64,000 nucleotides of DNA, taken from the NCBI GenBank assembly GCA_963827475.1, contig CAWHAZ010000005.1, positions 864,001-928,000 on the forward strand, read 5' to 3'. The stretch is from an uncultured Chloroflexia bacterium (GTDB lineage Bacteria; Chloroflexota; Limnocylindria; QHBO01). Both the position numbers and the translations under genes were made by a program. This document shows, piece after piece, positions 1,006 through 13,857 of the stretch. Below the pieces are notes generated by a model, which was not told where the DNA came from, did no database searches, and saw only the letters and a program-made list of their open reading frames with translations. Every line of letters begins with the position of its first letter. The first letter of the stretch is position 1.

Positions 1006-2350
1006 GTGGATTCGTTCTTCAAGTTCACGGAACGGGGTACAAACGTCGGCACCGAGATCCGGGCCGGCGTAACCACTTTCTTGGTGATGGTCTATATCGT
1101 GGCCCTCAACCCGGCGATCATCGCCGGGCCGATGGGTCTCGATCCAGTCGCGGTGGCGGCGGGGACCGCGCTGGTGGCCGGAATCATGACCCTGGCCATG
1201 GGCCTCATCACCAACTATCCCTTCGCCCTGGCCGCCGGCCTCGGTCTGAACGCGGCGGTTGCGTTCGGCCTGGTGCTCGGCCTGGGCATGACGGCCGCCC
1301 AGGCCATGGGCGTGATCGTCATCGAAGGTCTCATCATCTCGTTGCTGGTCATCGTCGGCCTGCGCGAGGCGATCATGAACGCGGTGCCACTGGGCCTGAA
1401 GCGGGCCATCGGCGTGGGCATCGGCCTGTTCATCCTGTTCATCGGCTTCTGGGATGGCGGGATGATCGTCGGGGTTACGCCGGAATTCGCTCCGCCGCCC
1501 CCGCCGCTCGCGTTCCAGTTCCCGACCGATCCGGCCGACTTCGTCTTCCTGGCCGGCCTGCTCCTGACCTTCGCGCTCTGGACCCTGAAGGTGAGGGGCG
1601 CGCTGATCATCAGCATCGCAGCGACCACCATCCTGGCCATCATCACCGGGGTGCAGGCCATTCCGGATGAGTTCGTGTGGACGCCGAGCTTCAGCACGCT
1701 GGGCCTGGGCCTCCAGGACCTGGCGGGGATCTTCACCATCGAGGCCGGCGTGCTGGCCGCGATCCTGGCGATCTTCACCATCATGCTCAGCGACTTCTTC
1801 GACACGATGGGCACCGTGACCGGCATCTCCGCCGAGGCGGGTCTCGCCGAGGAAGACGGCACGGTTCCGGGCGTCGGACGCGTCCTCCTGGTCGACGGCC
1901 TGGCGGCCGCGGTTGGTGGTGCGGCTGGCGTCAGCTCGAACACGACGCTACATCGAGAGCGCGGCTGGAGTGGGGGAGGGCGGACGGACCGGCATGACGG
2001 CCGTCGTCGTCGGCCTCCTGTTCCTCGCCGCGATCTTCCTGGCACCGATCGTCCAGATCATCCCGCTGGTGGCCACGGCCCCGGCCCTGGTCCTGGTCGG
2101 CTACCTGATGTTCACCCAGATCGGCGAGATCGACGTTCGGGACATCTATATCGGTCTCCCGGCGCTCCTGATCATGATCCTGATGCCGTTGACCTTCACG
2201 ATCACGATCGGCATCGGCGCCGGCCTCGTCGTATGGGTCTTCCTCAAGGTCATCGGGCGCCAGGCCCGGGACGTCCACTGGCTGATGTGGATCGTCTTCC
2301 TGGCGTTCCTGGTGTACTTCGCGCAGGCGCTGATCCAGACGTACATCTAG
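1006..2350 (+). CDS. NCS2/AzgA-family purine permease; frameshift near 1950 (likely sequencing indel)
   Basis: TEIRAGVTTF, NYPFALAAGLGLNA, DFFDTMGT in ORF 964-2370; continues as YIESAAGVGEGGRTG...ATAPAL in ORF 1913-2350; GAGGAGG RBS before GTG at 1006. Confidence 0.93.
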
Positions 2351-2368
2351 CGCCTGCCTCAAACCGAT

Positions 2369-2399
2369 GACGCCCGGCCGGGCCATCCGGCCGGGCGTC
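2369..2399 (+). terminator. 13-bp perfect inverted repeat after the permease, probable terminator
   Basis: gacgcccggccgg-gccat-ccggccgggcgtc; weak U tract. Confidence 0.6.
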
Positions 2400-2434
2400 G
2401 CACTGTTCCCCGTCGATCGGACTAGCCTGTTGTC

Positions 2435-3508
2435 GTGACCGATGCCTCCGAACGCCGTCTTCGGGTCGACGACTTCGACTACGAGCTGCCGACCGACGCT
2501 GTCGCCCAGTCGCCGGCCGAGCCGCGAGACGCCAGCCGGTTGCTGGTCTTCGATCGCGCTGCCTCCACGCCGGGGCAGCCCGCGCTGACCGAGGGACGCT
2601 TCGCGGACATCGGCCGATGGCTGCACCGCGGTGACCTCCTGGTCGTCAACGACAGCCGCGTGCTGCGGGCCCGGCTCCGCGGACGGCGCTCCGGCGGGGG
2701 AGCGACCGAGGTCCTGCTCCTCCGTCCACTGTCCCACGGGCAATGGGAGGCCCTCGTCCGGCCCGGTCGCCGCCTGCGACCGGGCGCATCGGTCCAGCTC
2801 ACGAACGGCGACACCCTGACCGTGGGCGATGCGGTGGGGGAGGGGACGCGGGCGGTGACCCTGACGCGCGACCCGATCGAGCTCATGGACGAGATCGGCG
2901 AGATGCCCCTGCCGCCGTACATCACCGCCGGCGATGCGCCCGACGACCGGTACCAGACCGTCTACGCCGAGCCGCCCGGCTCGGCGGCCGCTCCGACGGC
3001 TGGCCTCCACTTCACGCCGCGCCTCCTGGACGAGCTCGCGCAGGGGGGCGTCGAGCGCGCGGCAGTGACGCTCCACGTGGGGCTGGACACGTTCCAGCCG
3101 CTGGACGGCACGTACGTCGACGAGCACCACATCCACCGCGAGTGGTACGTCGTGCCGGACGCGACCCGGTCGGCCATCGTCCGGACGAAGACCGGTGGCG
3201 GCCGGGTGGTGGCGGTCGGGACCACGACGGCCAGGGTCCTCGAGACGCTCGCCCAGACGGGCGACCCCCAGGGTTGGACCGACCTGTTCATCGCCCCGCC
3301 CCACGCCTTTCGGTCGGTGGACGCGCTGGTGACCAACTTCCATCTGCCGCGCAGCTCGCTGCTGCTGCTGGTGACCGCGTTCGTCCAGGACGGGATGCAG
3401 GGCACGAGCGCGCTCGAGGCCCGTGACACGCTGCTCGCCGCCTATCGGTCCGCGCTGGAGCGCGGCTTCCGGTTCTACTCGTTCGGGGACGCGATGCTCG
3501 TCCGCTGA
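2435..3508 (+). CDS. queA: S-adenosylmethionine:tRNA ribosyltransferase-isomerase
   Basis: DFDYELP, PLPPYI, YQTVYA, AAPTAGLHFT, TNFHLPRSSL, FYSFGDAM. Confidence 0.98.
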   Translation: MTDASERRLRVDDFDYELPTDAVAQSPAEPRDASRLLVFDRAASTPGQPALTEGRFADIGRWLHRGDLLVVNDSRVLRARLRGRRSGGGATEVLLLRPLSHGQWEALVRPGRRLRPGASVQLTNGDTLTVGDAVGEGTRAVTLTRDPIELMDEIGEMPLPPYITAGDAPDDRYQTVYAEPPGSAAAPTAGLHFTPRLLDELAQGGVERAAVTLHVGLDTFQPLDGTYVDEHHIHREWYVVPDATRSAIVRTKTGGGRVVAVGTTTARVLETLAQTGDPQGWTDLFIAPPHAFRSVDALVTNFHLPRSSLLLLVTAFVQDGMQGTSALEARDTLLAAYRSALERGFRFYSFGDAMLVR

Positions 3509-3538
3509 CCGGGCTTCCCCGGCCGGTATCCTCGGCAC

Positions 3539-4711
3539 GTGCCGCCACCCATCAGCTTCGAGGTCCGGCCCACGGGCGTCGGCCGCGCCCGCCTGGGTCG
3601 GCTGGACACGCCGCACGGCACCGTGGACACGCCGCAGTTCATGCCAGTCGGAACCCAGGCCACGGTAAAGGCGGTCACCCCGCGCGACCTCCGCCAGGCC
3701 GGAACCACCATCCTGCTCGCCAACACCTACCACCTCACCCTCCGGCCGGGAGAGGAGCGGATCGCCCGGTTGGGCGGACTGCACGAATTCATGGCCTGGG
3801 ACGGACCGATCCTCACCGACTCCGGTGGCTACCAGGTCTTCAGCCTCGGCCATCTGCGAACGGTGGACGACGATGGCGTGACCTTCGCCTCGCACCTCGA
3901 TGGATCGGCAGTCCGCCTCACCCCGGAACGGGCGATCGAGATCCAGGAGGCACTGGGCAGTGACATCGCCATGGTCCTGGACCACCTGGTCGGGTCGGAC
4001 GCGCCGCCGGGCGAGACGTCGGCGGCCATGGACCGGACGCACGCCTGGGCGGCTCGTTCCCTCGCGTCCCGGCGGCGGGCCGACCAGGCGGTGTTCGGGA
4101 TCATCCAGGGCGGGGTGGATCGCTCCCTGCGGCAGGCGTCAGCCCGCGCCATCGGCGGGCTGCCCTTCGACGGCATCGCCATCGGTGGCCTGTCGGTCGG
4201 GGAGTCGAAGGCGGACATGGCCGCGGCCCTGGAAACGGTCGCCGACGCGCTGGCCGACGACCCGCGTCCGCGCTACCTGATGGGGGTCGGGTCGCCGGAG
4301 GATTTCTTCGTCGCCATCGAGCATGGGGTGGACCTGTTCGACTGCGTGCTCCCCACCCGCCTGGCGCGCCACGGGCAGCTGTGGACCTCGGAAGGGCGTC
4401 TCCGGCTGGCGAACACGGCGGTCCAGGACGACCCCCGCCCGGTGGACGCAGCCTGCGGCTGCGAGACCTGCCGCGACTACTCCCGGGCATACCTCGCCCA
4501 CCTGTTCCGGGCCGGGGAGCTGCTCGTCCATCGGCTCACTTCGGTCCATAACCTCACCTATACTCTCGACCTGATGCGGGCCATCCGCCAGGCGCTCACG
4601 GATGGCGGCTACGAGGCCCTTCGCGACCGCGTGACAGGCCAGTTCGCGGCTCCGGACGACGACCCGCAATCAAGCAGTAACGAGCCGATACAGGACGCTG
4701 TCCGAGACTGA
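3539..4711 (+). CDS. tgt: tRNA-guanine transglycosylase
   Basis: TPQFMPVGT, ANTYHL, TDSGGYQVFSL, GGLSVGE, PRYLMGVG, DCVLPTR, zinc site CGCETC...HN. Confidence 0.98.
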   Translation: MPPPISFEVRPTGVGRARLGRLDTPHGTVDTPQFMPVGTQATVKAVTPRDLRQAGTTILLANTYHLTLRPGEERIARLGGLHEFMAWDGPILTDSGGYQVFSLGHLRTVDDDGVTFASHLDGSAVRLTPERAIEIQEALGSDIAMVLDHLVGSDAPPGETSAAMDRTHAWAARSLASRRRADQAVFGIIQGGVDRSLRQASARAIGGLPFDGIAIGGLSVGESKADMAAALETVADALADDPRPRYLMGVGSPEDFFVAIEHGVDLFDCVLPTRLARHGQLWTSEGRLRLANTAVQDDPRPVDAACGCETCRDYSRAYLAHLFRAGELLVHRLTSVHNLTYTLDLMRAIRQALTDGGYEALRDRVTGQFAAPDDDPQSSSNEPIQDAVRD

Positions 4712-4943: not shown

Positions 4944-6056
4944 ATGGACGCGACAGCGGCCGCCCCCAAGACCAAGGCCAACGGGGAGAAGAACCCGGCC
5001 AACGGCGAGCGCGCCCGCGCGGTCGATGCGGCCATCCTCCAGATCGAGAAGCAGTTCGGGCAGGGCGCGATCATGCGGCTCGGCGACACCGGTGCGCGGA
5101 TGGCGGTCGATGTCATTCCGACCGGGTCGATCGCGCTCGACCTCGCCCTCGGCGTGGGCGGCGTGCCGCGCGGCCGGATCACGGAGATCTTCGGCCCCGA
5201 GTCGAGCGGCAAGACGACCCTGTGCTACCACATCGCCGCCAACGCCCAGAAGACCGGCGGGATCGTGGCCTTCATCGACGCCGAGCACGCGCTGGACCCG
5301 GGGTACGCCCGCAACCTGGGCGTCAACGTGGACGAGCTGCTCGTCAGCCAGCCGGACACCGGGGAGCAGGCACTCGAGATCGCGGAGACCCTCATTCGGA
5401 GCAGCGGCGTGGACGTCGTCATCGTCGACTCGGTGGCGGCCCTCGTGCCGCGGGCGGAGATCGAAGGCGAGATGGGGGACTCCTTCGTCGGCCTCCAGGC
5501 CCGGCTCATGAGCCAGGCGCTGCGCAAGCTCACCGGCGCCGTGAGCCGCTCGAACACGGCGCTGGTCTTCACCAACCAGCTGCGCGAAAAGATCGGGGTC
5601 ATGTTCGGCAACCCCGAGACCACGCCCGGCGGCCGCGCCCTGAAGTTCTACGCCTCGATCCGGATGGACATCCGTCGGATCGAGACGCTGAAGAACGGGA
5701 CCGATGCGTTCGGCAGCCGGACCCGGGTCAAGGTCGTGAAGAACAAGGTCGCCTCGCCTTTCCGGATCGCGGAGTTCGACATCCTCTACAACGAGGGCAT
5801 CTCCCGCGAGGGCGGCCTGCTCGACGTCGGGATCGCGTCGGGCGTGCTGTCGAAGACGGGCGCGTGGTTCAACTACGGCGACACCCGCCTCGGCAACGGC
5901 CGCGAGGCGGCGCGCGAGTTCCTGAAGGCCAACCCCGGCATGGCCGACGCGATCGAGGACGAGATCCGCGGCCGGGTGGCGGCCATCACCATCGGCGACG
6001 ACGGGACGGTGCCCGAGTCGGAGTCGGCGACCGCGGAGTCCGCGACCCCGGCCTGA
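4944..6056 (+). CDS. recA: Recombinase RecA
   Basis: [52 protein letters not shown]; AGGAAGGAG RBS upstream of ATG 4944. Confidence 0.99.
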
Positions 6057-6060
6057 CCGG

Positions 6061-6633
6061 GTGACAACGCCTCGGAAGCGCGCGGGGAGGGCCTCGGAGC
6101 CGAAGCCTCCGCCGGATCCCGAGCAGGCGTTCGAGATCGCGGGACGCTTCCTCGGGACGCGGCCTCGCTCTCGCTGGGAAGTCGAGCAGCGGCTTCGCCG
6201 TGCCGGCGCGTCCGACGAGGTGGTGGCCGCCACGCTCGAGCGCCTGGAGCGGATCGGGTTCGTGGACGACGAGGCCTTCGCCCGGTGGTGGGTGGAGCAG
6301 CGCGATCGCCACGCCCCGCGCGGACGGATGGCGCTCGAATCTGAGTTGCGGGCCAAGCGGCTGTCGCCGGCGGTCATCGCGTCGCTGCGGGACGCGCCGG
6401 ACGGGGAGCTGCCGGCCACCGATGACGAGCGGGCGGCCGCCGCGCTTGACCGGCACCTGAAGGGACGGCCGCTGCCAGAGGACCCGAAGGCGCTCCAGCG
6501 GCTCGGGATGTTCCTCGTGAGACGCGGCTTCGAGCCGGGCACGGCGCGGCGCGTCCTCCAGGCAGCTTCCGCCGAAAGTACTGGTGCCGAAAGTACTGCC
6601 GGAGGGGGTCGTTCCGCCGCGGACGAGGACTAG
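6061..6633 (+). CDS. recX: Regulatory protein RecX
   Basis: Directly after recA; RPRSRWEV..RL, GFVDDEAFA, LVRRGF. Confidence 0.93.
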   Translation: MTTPRKRAGRASEPKPPPDPEQAFEIAGRFLGTRPRSRWEVEQRLRRAGASDEVVAATLERLERIGFVDDEAFARWWVEQRDRHAPRGRMALESELRAKRLSPAVIASLRDAPDGELPATDDERAAAALDRHLKGRPLPEDPKALQRLGMFLVRRGFEPGTARRVLQAASAESTGAESTAGGGRSAADED

Positions 6634-6671
6634 CCTCGCATGAGGTGACGAGGCGCGTCACCAACAGGCGA

Positions 6672-6762
6672 TGGCCTGAAAAAGGCAAACCTGCCGCGAG
6701 GTGGGGACGCAAAGCCAAGGGTCTCGTGGTCGAACCCCACGAGACAGCCCGGCCGCCAGAAT
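6672..6762 (+). promoter_or_regulatory. Cyclic di-GMP-I (GEMM) riboswitch
   Basis: Matches the class consensus: GGCAAACC-tgcc-GCGA(GNRA)-ggtg-GGGACGCAAAGCC..GGGTCT..stem..AGACAGCC..GCC; G at the Vc2 G20-equivalent position (6684). Confidence 0.92.
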
Positions 6763-6793
6763 GCCCTCGCATCATTCTGTGAAGGGGAGAGTG

Positions 6794-8485
6794 ATGCAGG
6801 CAGTCAGCACCGCAGGCGCGGATGTCGACGGTCGACGCGACCGCGCCGCCGACCGCGCTCTGGTAACCCACATCGAGCTTCCCGCCGGTCCTGTTGCACG
6901 GCTGCGGATCCTCTTCGGCGTGTCCTGGGAATACTTCCGATCGGGCCCTTCATCCGGCGGGAGTCGGCCCTTTGGGCGTCCGCATCGCTTTGCGACTGCC
7001 CTGACCGCCTTTGCGCTCTTCGCCTCGGTCGTGGCGCCTTCCGCATCCATGGGCGCGACCTACGATCCGGCCACCGATCCGTACGCGATGTCCAACACGA
7101 CCCTCTTGATGGGCGCCGCCGCCTGGTGGCAGGCGGGATACACGGGCGCCGGGGTGGACGTCGCGGTCATCGACACGGGAGTCAACCCGGTCGAGGGACT
7201 GGCCACTCCCGGCAAGATCGTCTACGGCCCCGACCTGTCCCTGGAATCGCAGGCCGACGCCTACCGGCACCTCGACACCAATGGGCACGGGACGTTCATG
7301 GCGGGCCTGATCGCCGGCCGGGATTCCGGACTCCAGCAGCCGTACGCCTCCGCTCCGGCGTCGGCCTACCGGGGTGTCGCCCCGGATGCCCGAGTCGTGA
7401 GCCTCAAGGTGGGCGTCGCGGACGGCGGCGTCGATGTCTCGCAGGTGATCGCGGCCATCGACTGGGTCGTCCAGCATCGGTACGACAACGGGATGAACAT
7501 CCGCGTCATCAACCTGTCCTACGGGACGAACTCGACCCAGGATGCGATCTTCGATCCGCTGTCGTTCGCCGCCGAGCAGGCGTGGAAGAAGGGGATCGTG
7601 GTCGTGGCGGCCGGGGGCAACGCGGGCTTCCAGCGGCACATGAACAACGCGCCGGCCCTCGCCAACCCGGCGAATAACCGCTACCTGCTGGCCGTCGGCT
7701 CGACCGACTCGCTCGGCACCGCTGTGCTCGCCGACGACGTCGTCCCGGCGTTCTCGCCGTGGCCGAAGCGCGGCGCGACGAGGGGTGTCGACCTGGTCGC
7801 CCCGGGTGTCCGCCTCCAGGGCCTGCGCGTCCCGAACAGCTACATCGACCTCAACTACCCCGCGGGACAGCTCGGTGATCGCTTCTTCCGGGGCAGCGGC
7901 ACGTCGGAGTCGGCCGCACTCGTTTCGGGCGCCGTGGCGCTCGTCCTGCAGAAGTACCCCGACGCCACGCCGGACCAGGTCAAGGCGCTGCTCATGGGCA
8001 GCGGGTACGAGATCAATGCCAAGGCGCAGGCCATCGGCGGCGGTGAGGTCCAACTCACTCAGGCGCTCACCATGAACCTGCCGATCTCCGTGCAGATCTG
8101 GCCGTCCTCGGTCGGTACCGGATCGCTCGAGCTGGCCCGCGGCACGGACCACGTCTCCGACGATGGGGTCGTGCTGTCCGGCGAGCAGGACATCTTCGGC
8201 CACGAATTCAATTCGCCGGCCATGGCCGCTCTCGAAGCCGCAGGCAACTCGTGGTCCGGTGGCGTCTGGAACGGCAACAGCTGGTCGGGCAACTCGTGGT
8301 CCGGCAACTCGTGGTCCGGCAACAGCTGGAGTGGGAACAGCTGGTCGGGCAACTCGTGGTCCGGCAACAGCTGGAGTGGGAACAGCTGGTCGGGCAACTC
8401 GTGGTCCGGCAACAGCTGGAGTGGGAACAGCTGGTCGGGCAACTCGTGGTCCGGCAACAGCTGGAGCACGGGCGGCTGGAACTAG
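6794..8485 (+). CDS. S8 (subtilisin-family) serine peptidase with signal-like segment and C-terminal GNSWS repeats; start codon uncertain
   Basis: Catalytic triad VAVIDTG / NGHGTFMAG / GSGTSES; AAGGN oxyanion region; hydrophobic ATALTAFALFASVVAPSA; RBS GAAGGGGAG before GTG/ATG at 6791/6794. Confidence 0.93.
   Translation: MQAVSTAGADVDGRRDRAADRALVTHIELPAGPVARLRILFGVSWEYFRSGPSSGGSRPFGRPHRFATALTAFALFASVVAPSASMGATYDPATDPYAMSNTTLLMGAAAWWQAGYTGAGVDVAVIDTGVNPVEGLATPGKIVYGPDLSLESQADAYRHLDTNGHGTFMAGLIAGRDSGLQQPYASAPASAYRGVAPDARVVSLKVGVADGGVDVSQVIAAIDWVVQHRYDNGMNIRVINLSYGTNSTQDAIFDPLSFAAEQAWKKGIVVVAAGGNAGFQRHMNNAPALANPANNRYLLAVGSTDSLGTAVLADDVVPAFSPWPKRGATRGVDLVAPGVRLQGLRVPNSYIDLNYPAGQLGDRFFRGSGTSESAALVSGAVALVLQKYPDATPDQVKALLMGSGYEINAKAQAIGGGEVQLTQALTMNLPISVQIWPSSVGTGSLELARGTDHVSDDGVVLSGEQDIFGHEFNSPAMAALEAAGNSWSGGVWNGNSWSGNSWSGNSWSGNSWSGNSWSGNSWSGNSWSGNSWSGNSWSGNSWSGNSWSGNSWSGNSWSTGGWN
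8273..8467 (+). repeat. 13 tandem 15-bp units encoding (GNSWS)13, with a 45-bp higher-order period
   Basis: Units ggcaactcgtggtcc / ggcaacagctggagt / gggaacagctggtcg cycle from 8303 to 8467; one extra GNSWS at 8243-8257. Confidence 0.97.
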
Positions 8486-8518
8486 GCGGCTCAAGGCCCG
8501 GAGTGGGCTGACGACGCT

Positions 8519-11173
8519 ATGAACGGCCGCCTCGGGGAGCGCCTGCGCCACTACCCCGGTCTCGGCCGGGGCAGGACGCTTGGCGCACCGATGGCTCAGG
8601 CTGTCGTGGCTCGACTGACCCGGGTGCCGCTCGTATCGCGGGTCTGGGCCTTCGTGTTGCTGATCGACGTCGCCGCGGTGGCGGTGGCCGTCCTGGTGCT
8701 CCCCGGGCTGGAGCCCCTGGATCCGTCATGGCAGCTGCCCTGGTTCGTGCTCGCCGGCGGTTTCTGGGCCGCCGAGGCCCGCGTCATCCACTTCCATTTC
8801 CGCCGAGGGGCTCACACGTTCTCGTTGAATGAGCTCCCGCTCGTCATCGGCATGTTCCTCGCCGCTCCGCTGGACGTCGTCATCGCGCAGGTGGTGGGAT
8901 CCGCGGTGGCCCTGGCCTGGAACCGCCGGCAGCCCCCGGTCAAGCTGGCCTTCAACATCGGTTCGTTTGCGCTGTCGTCGAGCATTGGGCTCGCGGTCTT
9001 CCACATGGTCGGGTCCGGACCGATGACCGATCCATCTCGTTGGTTGGCGGCCTTCCTCGGCACGGGGATCGCGAACGTGGTGGGCGTCTTCGCGGTGGCT
9101 GCCGCGCTCACCGTGTCCGAGGGCAGCCTGGGGTTGGCAAAGCTGCGGCAGATGCTCGGCGTGTCATCGGTCGTCGCCGCCACGAACACGAGCGTGGCCC
9201 TGCTGGCGGTCATCATCGTCATCGCCGACCCGCGCGCGGCATGGCTCCTGGTCGTGCCCATCGCCACCCTCTTCTTCGGGTATCGAGCCTTCATCGGAGC
9301 GCGACAGCAGCACGAGTCCATGGAGCTCCTGTACGAGTCCACGCGCATCCTCCAGCGCACGCCCGAGCTCGACTCGGCGCTCGTCCAGCTGCTGGTCCAT
9401 AGCCGGACGATGTTCCGTGCGGAGCGCGCGGAGATCGTCATCTTCCCCGCCGAGCCGTCGGAGGCGTACCTGGTGACATCGGTGGCGGAGGACCGGACGA
9501 CGGTCATGGCGCCCGGCGACGCCGCCATCTGGAAACCACTCCACGCCTACCTGGCCGAGCACCCGAAAGCGTTCCTCCTGAACTCCACCTCCCTCGAGCT
9601 TGGCGAGGACCGCGAAGTCCGAGACGCGATGGTGGCGCCGTTGGGGACCGACGAGGGCATCGTTGGTGCGATGGTCGTGACCAACCGGCTCGGGGACGTG
9701 ACCACCTTCACCGCGGAAGATCTGCGCCTGTACGCGACGGTCGCCAGCCACGCCGGCACGGCCCTGGAGAATGGGCAGCTGGAGCGCTCGCTGACCAAGC
9801 TGTCCGTTCTGCAGGATGAGCTCAAGCACCAGGCATTTCACGACGGGCTGACCCAGCTGGCCAACCGCAGCCTGTTCCGCGAGAACGTCGATGCGCGGCT
9901 GGCCGCAATCACGCGCAGCCGGCGATCGGTAGTGATGTTCGTGGACCTCGACGATTTCAAGTTCGTGAACGACACGTACGGACACGAGGTGGGGGACGCC
10001 ATGCTGGTGGAGGTCGCGCGACGGCTCAACCTCTGCACCCGGACGGCCGATCTGACCGCTCGCCTGGGCGGCGACGAGTTCGCGATCCTGGTGGACGACC
10101 ATGCCGACCTGTCCAACGCCGAGCAGGTTGCGCAGCGCGTCACCGACTCGATCGGCCAGCCGTTCCTGATCGGGGACATCCAGACCCACGTCACCGCCAG
10201 CATCGGAATTGCCGCCGGACGGCAGGGAGGCTCGGCCGAGGACCTCCTCCGCCAGGCCGATATCGCGATGTACAGCGCCAAGGCAGCCGGAAAGGGCCGC
10301 TGGGCGGTGTACAAGGCGTCGATGCTGAAAGGCATCCAATCCCGGCATGACGCCGGCGAGGAGCTGCGCCGGGCCGTCGACCTCGGCGAGTTCGAGCTCC
10401 GCTACCAGCCGGTCGTCTCGCTCGAGTCGGGGGCGATCGTCGGCGCCGAGGCGCTGCTGCGCTGGAACCATCCCACCCGAGGCGAGGTCGAGCCGGACGA
10501 GTTCATCGGGGCCGCCGAAGACGGCGCGATCATCGTGCCCATCGGTCGCTGGGTGCTGGACGAGGCCTGTCGCCAGGCAGCGCGCTGGGGATCCGGCGAT
10601 GGATCGGGAGCGCCGTGGGTGGCCGTCAACCTCTCAGCGCGCCAGCTGCTTCACCCCACCCTCCTCGACGACGTCCGCGGCGCCATCGCCCGGTCCGGCC
10701 TGGCGCCGGCAAGCGTGGTGCTGGAGGTGACCGAGAGCGTGCTCCTGCACGACGCGGAGGCGGCGATCGCCGTCATCAGCGATCTGCGCAGGCTGGGGAT
10801 CCGGGTTGCCCTCGATGACTTCGGGACCGGATTCTCGTCGCTCAGCTACCTCCATCGGTTCCCGATCGACATCCTGAAGATCGGGCCCGGCTTCGTCGGG
10901 GTTGGGGATCGGAGCGACACCCGGTGGATCCTGACCGATGCGATCATCTCCCTCGGCAAGGCGCTTGGCCACCAGGTCGTGGCGGAGGGAGTCGAGCGCC
11001 GACATCAGGTCCAGCGCCTGAAAGCCGCCGGCTGTGAGCTGGCCCAGGGCTTCTTCTTCGCTCGGCCGCTGCACCCGGACACCCTCGCCACCCAGTTTGC
11101 GCATGACCTGGCCCAACGCCAGGGGTCGGACCGGATGGTGCAGTCGGAGGTCGGCGTAGACCAGGCCGCGTAG
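8519..11173 (+). CDS. Membrane-bound GAF-GGDEF-EAL diguanylate cyclase/phosphodiesterase (start may be 8591)
   Basis: Multi-TM N-terminus; GAF-like segment; HDGLTQLANR, DLDDFKFVND..GH..GD, RTAD I-site before RLGGDEF; YQP, EALLRW, EVTES, DDFGTGFSSL, VAEGVE, QGFFF. Confidence 0.96.
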   Translation: MNGRLGERLRHYPGLGRGRTLGAPMAQAVVARLTRVPLVSRVWAFVLLIDVAAVAVAVLVLPGLEPLDPSWQLPWFVLAGGFWAAEARVIHFHFRRGAHTFSLNELPLVIGMFLAAPLDVVIAQVVGSAVALAWNRRQPPVKLAFNIGSFALSSSIGLAVFHMVGSGPMTDPSRWLAAFLGTGIANVVGVFAVAAALTVSEGSLGLAKLRQMLGVSSVVAATNTSVALLAVIIVIADPRAAWLLVVPIATLFFGYRAFIGARQQHESMELLYESTRILQRTPELDSALVQLLVHSRTMFRAERAEIVIFPAEPSEAYLVTSVAEDRTTVMAPGDAAIWKPLHAYLAEHPKAFLLNSTSLELGEDREVRDAMVAPLGTDEGIVGAMVVTNRLGDVTTFTAEDLRLYATVASHAGTALENGQLERSLTKLSVLQDELKHQAFHDGLTQLANRSLFRENVDARLAAITRSRRSVVMFVDLDDFKFVNDTYGHEVGDAMLVEVARRLNLCTRTADLTARLGGDEFAILVDDHADLSNAEQVAQRVTDSIGQPFLIGDIQTHVTASIGIAAGRQGGSAEDLLRQADIAMYSAKAAGKGRWAVYKASMLKGIQSRHDAGEELRRAVDLGEFELRYQPVVSLESGAIVGAEALLRWNHPTRGEVEPDEFIGAAEDGAIIVPIGRWVLDEACRQAARWGSGDGSGAPWVAVNLSARQLLHPTLLDDVRGAIARSGLAPASVVLEVTESVLLHDAEAAIAVISDLRRLGIRVALDDFGTGFSSLSYLHRFPIDILKIGPGFVGVGDRSDTRWILTDAIISLGKALGHQVVAEGVERRHQVQRLKAAGCELAQGFFFARPLHPDTLATQFAHDLAQRQGSDRMVQSEVGVDQAA

Positions 11174-11217
11174 CGCGGCGCAGACGGGGCACAACCGGCC
11201 GGGTACCCTCTGCCCCG

Positions 11218-12210
11218 ATGCGCTTCGCCCTGATGACCGAGCCCCAGCAGGGGCTGTCCTACGACGAGATCCTCTCCGCCGCGCGGGCGGCCGAGACAGC
11301 AGGGTTCGAGGCGTTCTTCCGCTCCGACCACTACGCGAGCTTCCCCGGCCCGCCGGACAACCCGACGACTGACGCGTGGGCCACCCTCGCCGGCCTGGCC
11401 CGCGACACGGCGACCATCCACCTCGGGACGCTCGTGTCGCCGGTCACCTTCCGCCATCCGGGCAACCTGGCCAAGGTCGCGGCCACCGTCGACGAGATGA
11501 GCGGGGGCCGGGTCGAGGTCGGCCTGGGAGCCGGCTGGAACGACGTGGAGCACGCCGGGTATGGATTCCGTTACCCGGACCTCCCGGAGCGCTACGACAT
11601 GGTCGAGGAGACGCTCACCATCATCCACGGCCTGTGGACCGAGCCCGACGGTTGGTCGTTCACCGGGACGCACTGGCAGGTCCGCGACGCCCTGTTCCGC
11701 CCGCGGCCCACGGCATCGGGGAAGAAGCATCCGAACCTCCTCCTCGGCGGCGAGGGCGGCCCGCGCCAGGCCCGCCTGGTCGCCACCTGGGCCGACGAGT
11801 ACAACCGCACGTCGGCCTCGCCAACCAATGTCGGCGCGTCCTACGAGCGGGTGCGCGCCGCGTGCGAGGCGATCGGTCGCGATCCGGCCGAGGTCGAGCT
11901 GTCCGCCATGGTCGGTGTGCTGGTCGCGGAAACGGCGACGGAGCTGCAGGAGCGCGTCCGGGCCCAGCTGGCGGCATTCGGGTCAGACGCGCGTGGGGAT
12001 GGCGAAGCCTGGCTGGCCGAGCGGCGGGGGAGATGGATCCTGGGGACCCCGGACGAGGCACGGGAGCAGATCCGGGTCTTCGAGCAGGCGGGGGCGCAGC
12101 GGCTGATGCTCCAGGACTTCCTGCCCCGCGATCTCGACATGATTGGTCTGCTCGGGCAGATCGCCCGCAGCCTGAGCGCGGGAGGCGACCACCGGGACCA
12201 GTTGGAGTAG
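11218..12210 (+). CDS. LLM-class (luciferase-like), probably F420-dependent oxidoreductase
   Basis: TEPQQG, FFRSDHY, DAWATLAGLARDT, LVSPVTFRHPG.LAK, VDEMSGGRVEVGLGAGW. Confidence 0.92.
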   Translation: MRFALMTEPQQGLSYDEILSAARAAETAGFEAFFRSDHYASFPGPPDNPTTDAWATLAGLARDTATIHLGTLVSPVTFRHPGNLAKVAATVDEMSGGRVEVGLGAGWNDVEHAGYGFRYPDLPERYDMVEETLTIIHGLWTEPDGWSFTGTHWQVRDALFRPRPTASGKKHPNLLLGGEGGPRQARLVATWADEYNRTSASPTNVGASYERVRAACEAIGRDPAEVELSAMVGVLVAETATELQERVRAQLAAFGSDARGDGEAWLAERRGRWILGTPDEAREQIRVFEQAGAQRLMLQDFLPRDLDMIGLLGQIARSLSAGGDHRDQLE

Positions 12211-12324
12211 AGTACCCGCCACCGATCGTCGGACCGAACCCCGCCCATCGGCTTGACAGACCGTTAACGCGGGCCCTGGCAGGGCACGCCCGGACCTGAT
12301 CCTCGCTCCTAGAGGAAGGGAGCC

Positions 12325-13853
<1,529 letters not shown>

Positions 13854-13857
<4 letters not shown>

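Follow-up and report, generated by a model that had tools for sequence, protein, structure and literature searches.

In the available part of PMC6366702, zmpI of Clostridioides difficile (its product is also named PPEP-1) is described as the gene of a secreted protease that lies behind a class I riboswitch for cyclic di-GMP (c-di-GMP). In Pseudomonas, the c-di-GMP receptor LapD recruits LapG, a periplasmic protease, according to the available portions of PMC3032545 and PMC3032553. Membrane domains of the LytS/BtsS/YpdA type, which are pyruvate receptors, share the S-component fold, with a GAF linker in YpdA (PMC11109136, in the part available), and the accessible portion of a preprint (bioRxiv 10.1101/2021.11.05.467447) describes MASE9 as a promiscuous sensor of eight transmembrane (TM) segments, with short loops, charged residues in the membrane and an unknown ligand, which occurs in HD-GYP and in GGDEF-EAL proteins, many of them from Actinomycetota. 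Here we describe a locus in which elements of these kinds stand together. It lies in a 64 kb stretch of DNA (the window) from a Limnocylindria-type Chloroflexota metagenome-assembled genome (MAG; G000, 1.92 Mb, 90% complete), and consists of a c-di-GMP-I-class riboswitch aptamer, the gene of an S8 (subtilisin-family) serine protease whose C-terminal tail is a pentapeptide repeat, and the gene of a membrane sensor with GAF, GGDEF and EAL domains. The protease and sensor genes are neighbours in several phyla, and we propose that the membrane domain of the sensor may report what the protease does outside the cell.

The three elements are on the + strand, in the order aptamer (6675-6761), protease gene (6794-8485, 563 residues) and sensor gene (8519-11173, 884 residues). 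The protease frame ends with the stop codon TAG at 8483-8485 and the sensor begins with the ATG at 8519, leaving a gap of 33 nt. The initial annotation, made from the sequence alone, had reported a c-di-GMP-I aptamer directly before an S8 protease with a signal-like segment and, 33 nt further on, a multi-TM GAF-GGDEF-EAL gene with intact GGDEF, RxxD, EAL and DDFGTG motifs. All of this was borne out: the aptamer scores above the gathering thresholds of Rfam, including that of RF01051, the protease is recognised by Pfam and has a hydrophobic stretch at residues 65-87, and the sensor is as described in its coordinates, Pfam domains and motifs.

The interpretation is carried by the conservation of the pair. 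Scanning one genome per species gave 79 loci at which a close relative of the protease is encoded; these loci belong to Chloroflexota, Actinomycetota (Acidimicrobiia, Thermoleophilia, Frankiales, Actinoplanes, Blastococcus), Dormibacterota and one MAG labelled Verrucomicrobiia. A homologous TM domain adjoins the protease gene in 68 of these loci, 67 of them recognised by a hidden Markov model (HMM) made from 36 sequences of the TM domain and one, L103, by tblastn at a contig end. This adjacency to homologous TM sensors, those with kinase or phosphatase outputs included, had been set beforehand as a check and was found. The sensor gene is downstream on the same strand in 50 loci, upstream on the same strand in 14, and upstream in divergent orientation in 4; it was not found in 11 loci, and among these 11 contig ends truncate L036, L060, L067, L071, L072 and, in part, L099. 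All-against-all clustering of every open reading frame (ORF) of at least 100 residues in the 79 loci recovers a protease cluster of 78 loci and a sensor cluster of 65; the other clusters, of 70, 63, 62, 54, 21 and 16, are shadow or alternative frames in the two genes, as judged by their listed example members. Beyond the two genes, no ORF family is common to more than 9 of the 79 loci, so the pair travels without a fixed third gene.

The output attached to the membrane domain varies. Among the 67 ORFs hit by the HMM, 57 have GGDEF and EAL domains and 2 have them in part; the TM domain is followed by GAF-HisKA-HATPase in L105 and L110, by PAS-HisKA-HATPase in L044, L046, L049 and L050, and by GAF-SpoIIE (PP2C) in L093, and L051 has no recognised output after it. 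The conserved partner of the protease is thus the membrane domain and not the output. A constant input domain with swapped outputs is the signature of a shared input, and information flow from protease to receptor is favoured for this reason. Counted from the sensor side, the 201 sampled genomes of the phylum contain 12 strong TM-domain matches (at least 179 bits), and 9 of these adjoin a protease of the family: one each in G000, G014, G049, G091, G096 and G120, and three in G195. The G195 loci (L125-L128) hold three separate pairs, whose proteases have different repeat units in the tail, namely GQ(S/T)WS, GSTWS and NNSWS. A fourth protease of the same genome has an internal TGA, and its neighbour has no strong TM-domain match. 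In two further loci from other families of the class (L034 on G035:C3 and L035 on G033:C78), distant S8 homologues with 33-38% identity have GGDEF or EAL genes within 1 kb; the two kinds of gene are divergent there, and no aptamer was found at either locus.

Within the genus the locus behaves as a unit. A close orthologue of the protease is present in 8 of 17 congeners; G016, which is flagged as unpublished, is counted among the eight, and the conclusion on the unit holds without it. The gene order tgt-recA-recX-(aptamer-protease-sensor)-LLM-rny, in which LLM is an F420-type luciferase-like monooxygenase gene (11218-12210 in the window), is complete in six and is cut by contig ends in G007 and G011, and the sensor orthologues are 84-92% identical. 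In five congeners that lack the protease (G003, G006, G012, G013, G015), recX abuts LLM-rny. The aptamer, the protease and the sensor are therefore either all present or all absent, and the LLM gene is part of the backbone. It had been counted with the block between recX and rny by the initial annotation, which was right as to position; its membership of the block falls away given the five congeners. We regard the block 6675-11173 as a mobile three-part cassette around an old two-gene signalling pair.

On the reading that we favour, the first gene would give an exported, catalytically competent-looking S8 protease with 7-20 G-x-(S/T)-W-S units, and the second a membrane receptor whose 8-TM domain would signal to the output through a long helix and the GAF domain. 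This membrane domain would report the action of the protease outside the cell, the information passing from protease to sensor, and the receptor would turn the extracellular signal into a c-di-GMP level. The likeliest signal would be a small product of proteolysis, a small molecule being favoured as the ligand because of the fold predicted for the TM domain. In Limnocylindria-type Chloroflexota, the c-di-GMP-I riboswitch would set translation of the protease by way of a hairpin at the start codon, and its position on the protease would close a feedback loop. It is very probable that protease and sensor form a real functional module; to the reading as a whole, with the direction from protease to sensor included, we give an even chance.

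The aptamer is the one Rfam match that cmscan finds in the whole window. It matches c-di-GMP-I-GGC (RF03167) at 6675-6761 on the + strand with 64.4 bits (gathering threshold 59, E 6.4e-13), and the general c-di-GMP-I model (RF01051, GEMM-I) at 6674-6760 with 60 bits against a gathering threshold of 35. It is also the sole aptamer of the c-di-GMP-I class in the 1.92 Mb assembly. In the window aptamer, GACGCAAAGCC, an A stands directly after GACGC. The RF03167 consensus, GACGCGAAg, has a conserved G at this place, where A is found in the window as well as in each of the 20 related aptamers; the score is thus above the gathering threshold of RF03167, but the variant nucleotide of that family is absent. 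The name GGC presumably derives from this nucleotide position, and the A would correspond to A47 of the Vc2 aptamer. The ligand contacts of Vc2 are G20, A47 and C92 (PMC4744006, in the part available). Because A rather than the consensus G follows GACGC, the window RNA looks like an ordinary c-di-GMP-I aptamer, not the GGC variant, and is a predicted binder of c-di-GMP.

Related aptamers were sought with an in-house covariance model, which was made from nine aptamers and run on the 79 protease loci. An aptamer directly 5' of the protease gene, on the same strand, was found in 20 of the 79, and 19 of these 20 are labelled as Chloroflexota-type. A match in L088 (25.7 bits) is weak, partial and located elsewhere in the locus, and it is regarded as spurious. 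By Rfam, the aptamer stands before the protease in the 7 congener loci that have upstream sequence, and also in G024, which belongs to a different genus; in a genome-wide scan it is the sole c-di-GMP-I aptamer of each of those 7 congener genomes. Rfam finds no c-di-GMP aptamer at the more distant S8 loci L033-L035, L015 and L016. One congener without the cassette (L120, G006:C3:219500-228000) has a single c-di-GMP-I aptamer at about 3 kb from a weak TM-domain homologue (42.7 bits). Aptamers in other contexts occur in G006, G019, G020, G030 and G039, where the listing of ORFs, made without a family scan, has no clear pattern.

The sequence between the aptamer and the beginning of the coding region (6762-6802) folds, at minimum free energy, into a hairpin that has the features of an expression platform. 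Its 3' arm pairs with the start codon of the protease (ATG at 6794-6796), and the Shine-Dalgarno sequence GAAGGGGAG is in and beside the loop. The leader hairpin of the window has a minimum free energy of -20.5 kcal/mol (z -2.8 against shuffles). When each leader is folded by itself, from the end of the aptamer to 14 nt beyond the start codon, a start-codon hairpin is present in the minimum-energy fold of 20 of 20 distinct leaders, with a 3' arm that pairs at least 2 nt of the AUG and z-scores from -0.8 to -4.2. The sequences of the arms vary among lineages though the arrangement is kept; RNAalifold on a MAFFT alignment of 18 leader tails gave no consensus structure, the alignment being out of register between lineages. 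No terminator-like site was found on the + strand from 6000 to 12400. The riboswitch is predicted to act on translation, via this start-codon hairpin. A search for an anti-sequestrator, in which the last 28 nt of the aptamer were paired with the 5' arm of the hairpin, gave z-scores from -1.6 to +0.7 in 20 leaders, no better than shuffles. The window has one complementary pairing of this kind, CAGAAUG (6756-6762) with CAUUCUG (6773-6779), which is not relied on here, the duplex test across lineages being negative.

Control through the aptamer extends to one of the two genes. The sensor gene is 5' of the aptamer in 12 of the 20 riboswitch loci, so that the riboswitch gates the protease alone. 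The window genome has 11-12 GGDEF genes and one c-di-GMP riboswitch; with that many GGDEF genes, the c-di-GMP pool is not private to the locus. There is no PilZ match in the window genome, and together with the single riboswitch this suggests that the protease may be a major c-di-GMP output of the organism. It had been proposed that the operon regulates itself through its own messenger. A loop is plausible in this lineage, but the proposal is too broad in view of a riboswitch that gates the protease only and of the number of GGDEF genes.

The membrane domain of the sensor (residues ~35-260, 8621-9298) has about 8 hydrophobic segments with short outer loops, by hydropathy and in the structural model. 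In the window protein it has no Pfam match, and neither MASE9 nor 5TM-5TMR_LYT is found at E up to 1. Its relatives have a weak link to MASE9 (PF20972), which matches 8 of 38 of them (best E 1.8e-4; the score of L044 is 24.1 bits, for a cut-off of 24.3), and a feature search of a protein atlas with the sensor led to clusters that contain MASE9; 5TM-5TMR_LYT (PF07694) has no match in the 38 relatives at E up to 0.1. In the alignment of the TM domain E86, K142 and N146 are invariant, and S102, P117, G127, R136, Q138 and F145 are nearly so. The AlphaFold2 (AF2) model of the domain, computed from a 38-row alignment, has a predicted local distance difference test score (pLDDT) of 89.8 and a predicted template modelling score of 0.80. 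In a structural search of representatives with VIA-align, the top 15 matches are S-components from transporters of the energy-coupling factor type, or their kin, among them RibU, ThiT, BioY, FolT, PanT, CbiM and BtuM. Root-mean-square deviations are 3.0-4.3 Å over 147-186 aligned residues, which is most of each target. The Z-scores of these 15 run from 13.1 to 10.0 and the next row is at 7.0; a Z of about 13 for helical bundles can reflect a common arrangement, and the match is taken seriously because the top of the list is family-pure and a gap lies below it. Foldseek returns the same S-component chains with probabilities of 0.9-0.99, none of them with an E-value of 0.001 or less. The TM domain is thus modelled as a six-helix, S-component-like fold with an extra N-terminal helix. 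Complex prediction with residues 30-300 of the sensor and residues 60-563 of the protease, each entered as an alignment, gave a score of 0.00 in 2 runs, made without controls, and this score weighs on neither side of the question of binding.

Several of the results weigh against the favoured reading, in addition to the caution that applies to Z-scores of helical bundles. Nothing in the analysis amounts to contact or ligand binding between the protease and the sensor. The most conserved motifs of the sensor, a beta-hairpin at 90-101 and HRRQ..K..FN at 135-146, appear in the model to face the cytoplasm, and they give no pointer to a pocket on the outside. Five loci (L054, L056, L062, L063, L090) have no sensor despite at least 3 kb of sequence on both sides, and G154, G186 and G203, the last flagged as unpublished, have strong sensors and no protease of the family in the genome (E up to 1e-20). 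Divergence of the two proteins is not parallel: proteases with about 70% identity to that of the window adjoin the most divergent sensors, which are PAS-kinases with 19-23% identity in the TM domain. On the RNA side, no aptamer was found at the members from Actinomycetota and Dormibacterota, either with the covariance model on the 79 loci or with Rfam on 8 actinomycetotal loci. An upstream GEMM element had been set as a further check at the relatives of the protease; it is present at the 20 loci named above and was not found in these two phyla, so the riboswitch is an add-on to an older protein pair and the feedback loop is lineage-specific at best. The start-codon hairpin is present in all thermodynamic folds, even with the 5' part of the aptamer blocked, and, no anti-sequestrator having been found, this persistence leaves an effect of the ligand on expression unexplained.

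Much of this would also fit co-function without a direct signal link. In that case the sensor would read an unrelated small molecule or the state of the membrane, the protease would be an effector of the same programme (surface, biofilm or feeding), and the genes would stay together for co-regulation and joint transfer. That the pair is not obligate in either direction and that the two proteins do not diverge in parallel agree with this, as does the separate control of the two genes in 12 of the 20 riboswitch loci; in C. difficile, moreover, the class I riboswitch does no more than bring a secreted protease under global control by c-di-GMP, as described in the available part of PMC6366702. But co-regulation alone rarely holds genes adjacent across three phyla when their neighbourhoods change and three orientations occur. 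The kinase and phosphatase outputs, furthermore, leave no shared messenger that could explain the constant pairing of TM domain and protease, and in G195 three paralogous pairs are retained as pairs within one genome. We consider co-function of this kind unlikely, if by no means implausible.

The state of the output domains bears on the direction of the signal. Pfam recognises GAF, GGDEF and EAL domains in the sensor. The GAF domain (residues 319-418, 9473-9772) is matched by both GAF and GAF_3. The GGDEF domain (residues 439-593, 9833-10297; E 1.2e-45, 155.6 bits) has an intact GGDEF motif and the RxxD of an I-site, as RTAD-x5-GGDEF at residue 508. The EAL domain (residues 614-850, 10358-11068; E 2.1e-70, 237.2 bits) has the EALxR motif as EALLR at 644, DDFGTG at 766 and EGVE at 823. 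The motifs are also kept among the 53 full-length GGDEF-EAL partners, with GG[DE]EF in 53, EALxR in 50, DDFGTG in 49 and RxxD in 42, and these proteins therefore look like working enzymes rather than degenerate receptors.

LapD, in contrast, has degenerate GGDEF and EAL domains along with HAMP and periplasmic domains; LapG is a cysteine protease, and the two genes are adjacent. An inside-out arrangement of this type would have the sensor read the cytoplasm and, on the outer side of the membrane, hold or release the protease, the information passing from sensor to protease. A TM-GGDEF-EAL gene beside the gene of an exported protease is indeed the LapD/LapG layout (PMC3032545, PMC3032553, in the parts available), and the Trp-rich tail could conceivably hold the protease at the membrane surface. 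The GGDEF and EAL motifs here are intact, though, Pfam finds no HAMP domain, and by hydropathy and in the model the outer loops are short only, so there is no periplasmic output domain. The TM domain is also kept where kinases or a phosphatase replace the cytoplasmic module, which is the pattern of an input domain. Taken together, this makes an inside-out arrangement improbable. A LapD-type assignment of the sensor was itself rejected, NF045673 scoring 133 bits against a cut-off of 1020, with the motifs intact and HAMP absent.

The favoured reading places an active protease outside the cell. The longest ORF runs from 6701 to 8485, and the likeliest start, itself conserved in relatives and located within the conserved hairpin, is the ATG at 6794, preceded by GAAGGGGAG. 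Peptidase_S8 (PF00082) covers residues 118-403 (E 6.7e-40, 137.6 bits), and the closest relative of known structure in the Protein Data Bank (PDB) is 3afg (E 6.7e-40). The catalytic Asp-His-Ser residues and the oxyanion Asn (D127, H165, S371 and N276) are invariant in 27 relatives. A hydropathy scan finds a single hydrophobic, signal-like segment at residues 65-87 (6986-7054), a putative export signal or signal-anchor. In the alignment of the 27 a motif containing RR stands just ahead of it in the relatives, and the window protein has HR there. TatC is present in the window genome, and with the RR-containing motif of the relatives this makes export in the folded state by the twin-arginine translocation (Tat) system possible. 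Going by its sequence, the protease appears to be exported and looks active. A type VII secretion mycosin (TIGR03921) was considered and rejected, at 139 bits against a cut-off of 278.75. The AF2 model of the whole protease is moderately confident in the catalytic core, and not in residues 1-88 or the tail. The stretch of 60 residues before the signal-like segment (6794-6985) is conserved, as MQA..GR.DR..DRA ... ILxGVSWxYxKS; this stretch is confined to the Limnocylindria-type subfamily, which is without the I9-like propeptide of other members.

The C-terminal tail (8231-8482) consists of G-x-(S/T)-W-S pentapeptides, with 13 perfect GNSWS units at 8273-8467 and degenerate units flanking them. 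Tandem Repeats Finder gives periods of 15 and 45 for its DNA. At the DNA level the 13 units come in 5 different 15-nt versions, which form a 45-nt higher-order repeat, with a mean of 3.5 differences per 15 nt, Ser codons from both the AGY and the TCN families and no amino-acid change, and only about 17% of the possible single changes in a unit are silent. Varied DNA with an unvaried peptide indicates that the peptide sequence of the tail is under selection. The protease has 6851 homologues, and 119 of the 120 best have Trp at every fifth residue of the tail. In these 119 arrays the Trp is invariant, position 2 of the G-x-(S/T)-W-S unit varies freely among N, S, G, K, L, A, D and T, the length is 7-20 units (median 15), and the share of the commonest unit in an array has a median of 53%. 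No Pfam family lies on the tail at E up to 1, phmmer against the PDB gives weak matches only, to Qnr pentapeptide-repeat chains (E 0.084-0.5), and a literature search with four repeat strings returned no paper. In the one AF2 run the pLDDT of the tail is about 25. Retention of the protease at the surface of the membrane or the wall is a possible role of the Trp tail.

It had also been suggested that the tail is itself the signal, the protease freeing its own G-x-S-W-S pentapeptides, or the whole tail, for binding by the neighbouring receptor. Selection on the peptide, as read from 13 identical GNSWS units with 5 DNA versions and both Ser codon families, would suit a signal, and so would the receptor fold, which is of a type that binds small ligands, and the three different units of the three G195 pairs. 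Tandem arrays homogenise themselves, however, so differences between paralogues are the null expectation, and a commonest unit at a median of 53% with a free position 2 fits better a structural repeat with one exposed position. Cleavage is an assumption only, and a tail acting as signal seems to us very improbable. That unrelated protease and GGDEF-EAL genes came to lie behind the riboswitch by chance can be dismissed as next to negligible, for although with 11-12 GGDEF genes some will sit beside anything, a homologous TM domain adjoins the protease in 68 of 79 loci from three phyla and the genes are gained and lost together within the genus.

The cassette is flanked in the window by tgt, recA and recX (6061-6633) on one side, and by the LLM gene and rny (12325-13857) on the other. 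A minus-strand ORF of 703 residues (1931-4042), without a Pfam family, overlaps the 5' part of tgt (3539-4711, +), and recA has at its 3' end (6019-6051) a 15-nt tandem repeat of 2.2 copies. Contigs from RNA libraries, of four runs of one rhizosphere study, match the locus at 90-99% identity. One of them (run X5, record 21) corresponds to 8438-9234 and crosses the junction of protease and sensor; such contigs cannot prove a single transcript, DNA carry-over being possible, and the junction contig is a hint at most. RNA-library contigs of three runs, in the stretch 6136-6691, cover recX and all end at 6691, in the 5' part of the aptamer, a common end that may stem from assembly across a conserved element.

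MASE-type and S-component-fold sensor domains are very common inputs, very few of which have a known signal; a fixed genomic partner in the form of a specific exported protease therefore offers a concrete, testable lead to the input of the sensor. The pair occurs in abundant and poorly studied lineages of soil and freshwater (Limnocylindria, Dormibacterota, Acidimicrobiia, Thermoleophilia), and also in cultured actinomycetes that are open to genetics (Blastococcus, Actinoplanes). As a repeat type under selection, the G-x-S/T-W-S tail is widespread, and no Pfam family covers it. A broader generalisation would be a sensing mode of monoderm soil bacteria in three phyla, in which the ligand of an S-component-fold receptor with pluggable outputs, namely c-di-GMP turnover, a histidine kinase or a PP2C phosphatase, is made by an exported S8 protease, out of environmental protein or of its own pentapeptides. 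In Limnocylindria a riboswitch would close the loop and turn protease, receptor and messenger into a self-tuning circuit, and paralogous pairs that differ in their repeat unit, such as those of G195, would act as separate channels. We hold this generalisation to be distinctly unlikely as a whole.

A literature search, with most subscription journals outside its coverage, turned up no published account of the pair or the repeat, and none of a MASE9-like or S-component-fold receptor that has a partner protease; this agrees with the initial annotation, which knew of no characterised system with the layout. Compared with zmpI, the locus has the same arrangement: the leader of a secreted-protease gene contains a class I c-di-GMP aptamer, by which extracellular proteolysis comes under the second messenger. 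ZmpI is a zinc metalloprotease and the enzyme here is of the S8 family. Control of ZmpI is, we presume, by transcription termination, unlike the start-codon hairpin predicted here, where a terminator was not found. The zmpI system is described, moreover, without a partner sensor gene or a Trp-repeat tail. With LapD-LapG the locus shares a membrane GGDEF-EAL protein tied to an exported protease; it differs in its intact motifs, in the 8-TM bundle with short loops, in the S8 protease, and in the kinase and phosphatase outputs of the relatives. A more distant parallel is offered by the Phr pentapeptides of Bacillus, which are cut out by secreted subtilisin-family proteases and imported, with the precursor, the protease and the cytoplasmic receptor as separate proteins. 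By analogy only, an S8 protease could yield extracellular pentapeptide signals here as well; unlike in the Phr system, protease and repeats form one protein, and the candidate receptor is a membrane protein.

The sensor itself is closest to two groups of membrane domains. It resembles LytS/BtsS/YpdA (5TMR-LYT) in the predicted TM fold, in the extra N-terminal helix and in a GAF linker like that of YpdA, and also in its modular outputs, kinase or GGDEF/EAL (PMC11109136, in the part available). It is unlike them in having no match to the 5TM-5TMR_LYT profile; BtsS/YpdA-type receptors sense pyruvate and are described without a partner protease, the word 'protease' being absent from the available text of PMC11109136. 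The window protein differs from MASE9 in having no match to that profile, and the accessible portion of the MASE9 preprint mentions no protease partner; like MASE9, the sensor has 8 TM segments with short loops, and its relatives have weak matches to the profile. Each part of the locus is therefore of a known kind, and there is a fair chance that their combination represents a new way of generating the ligand of a receptor.

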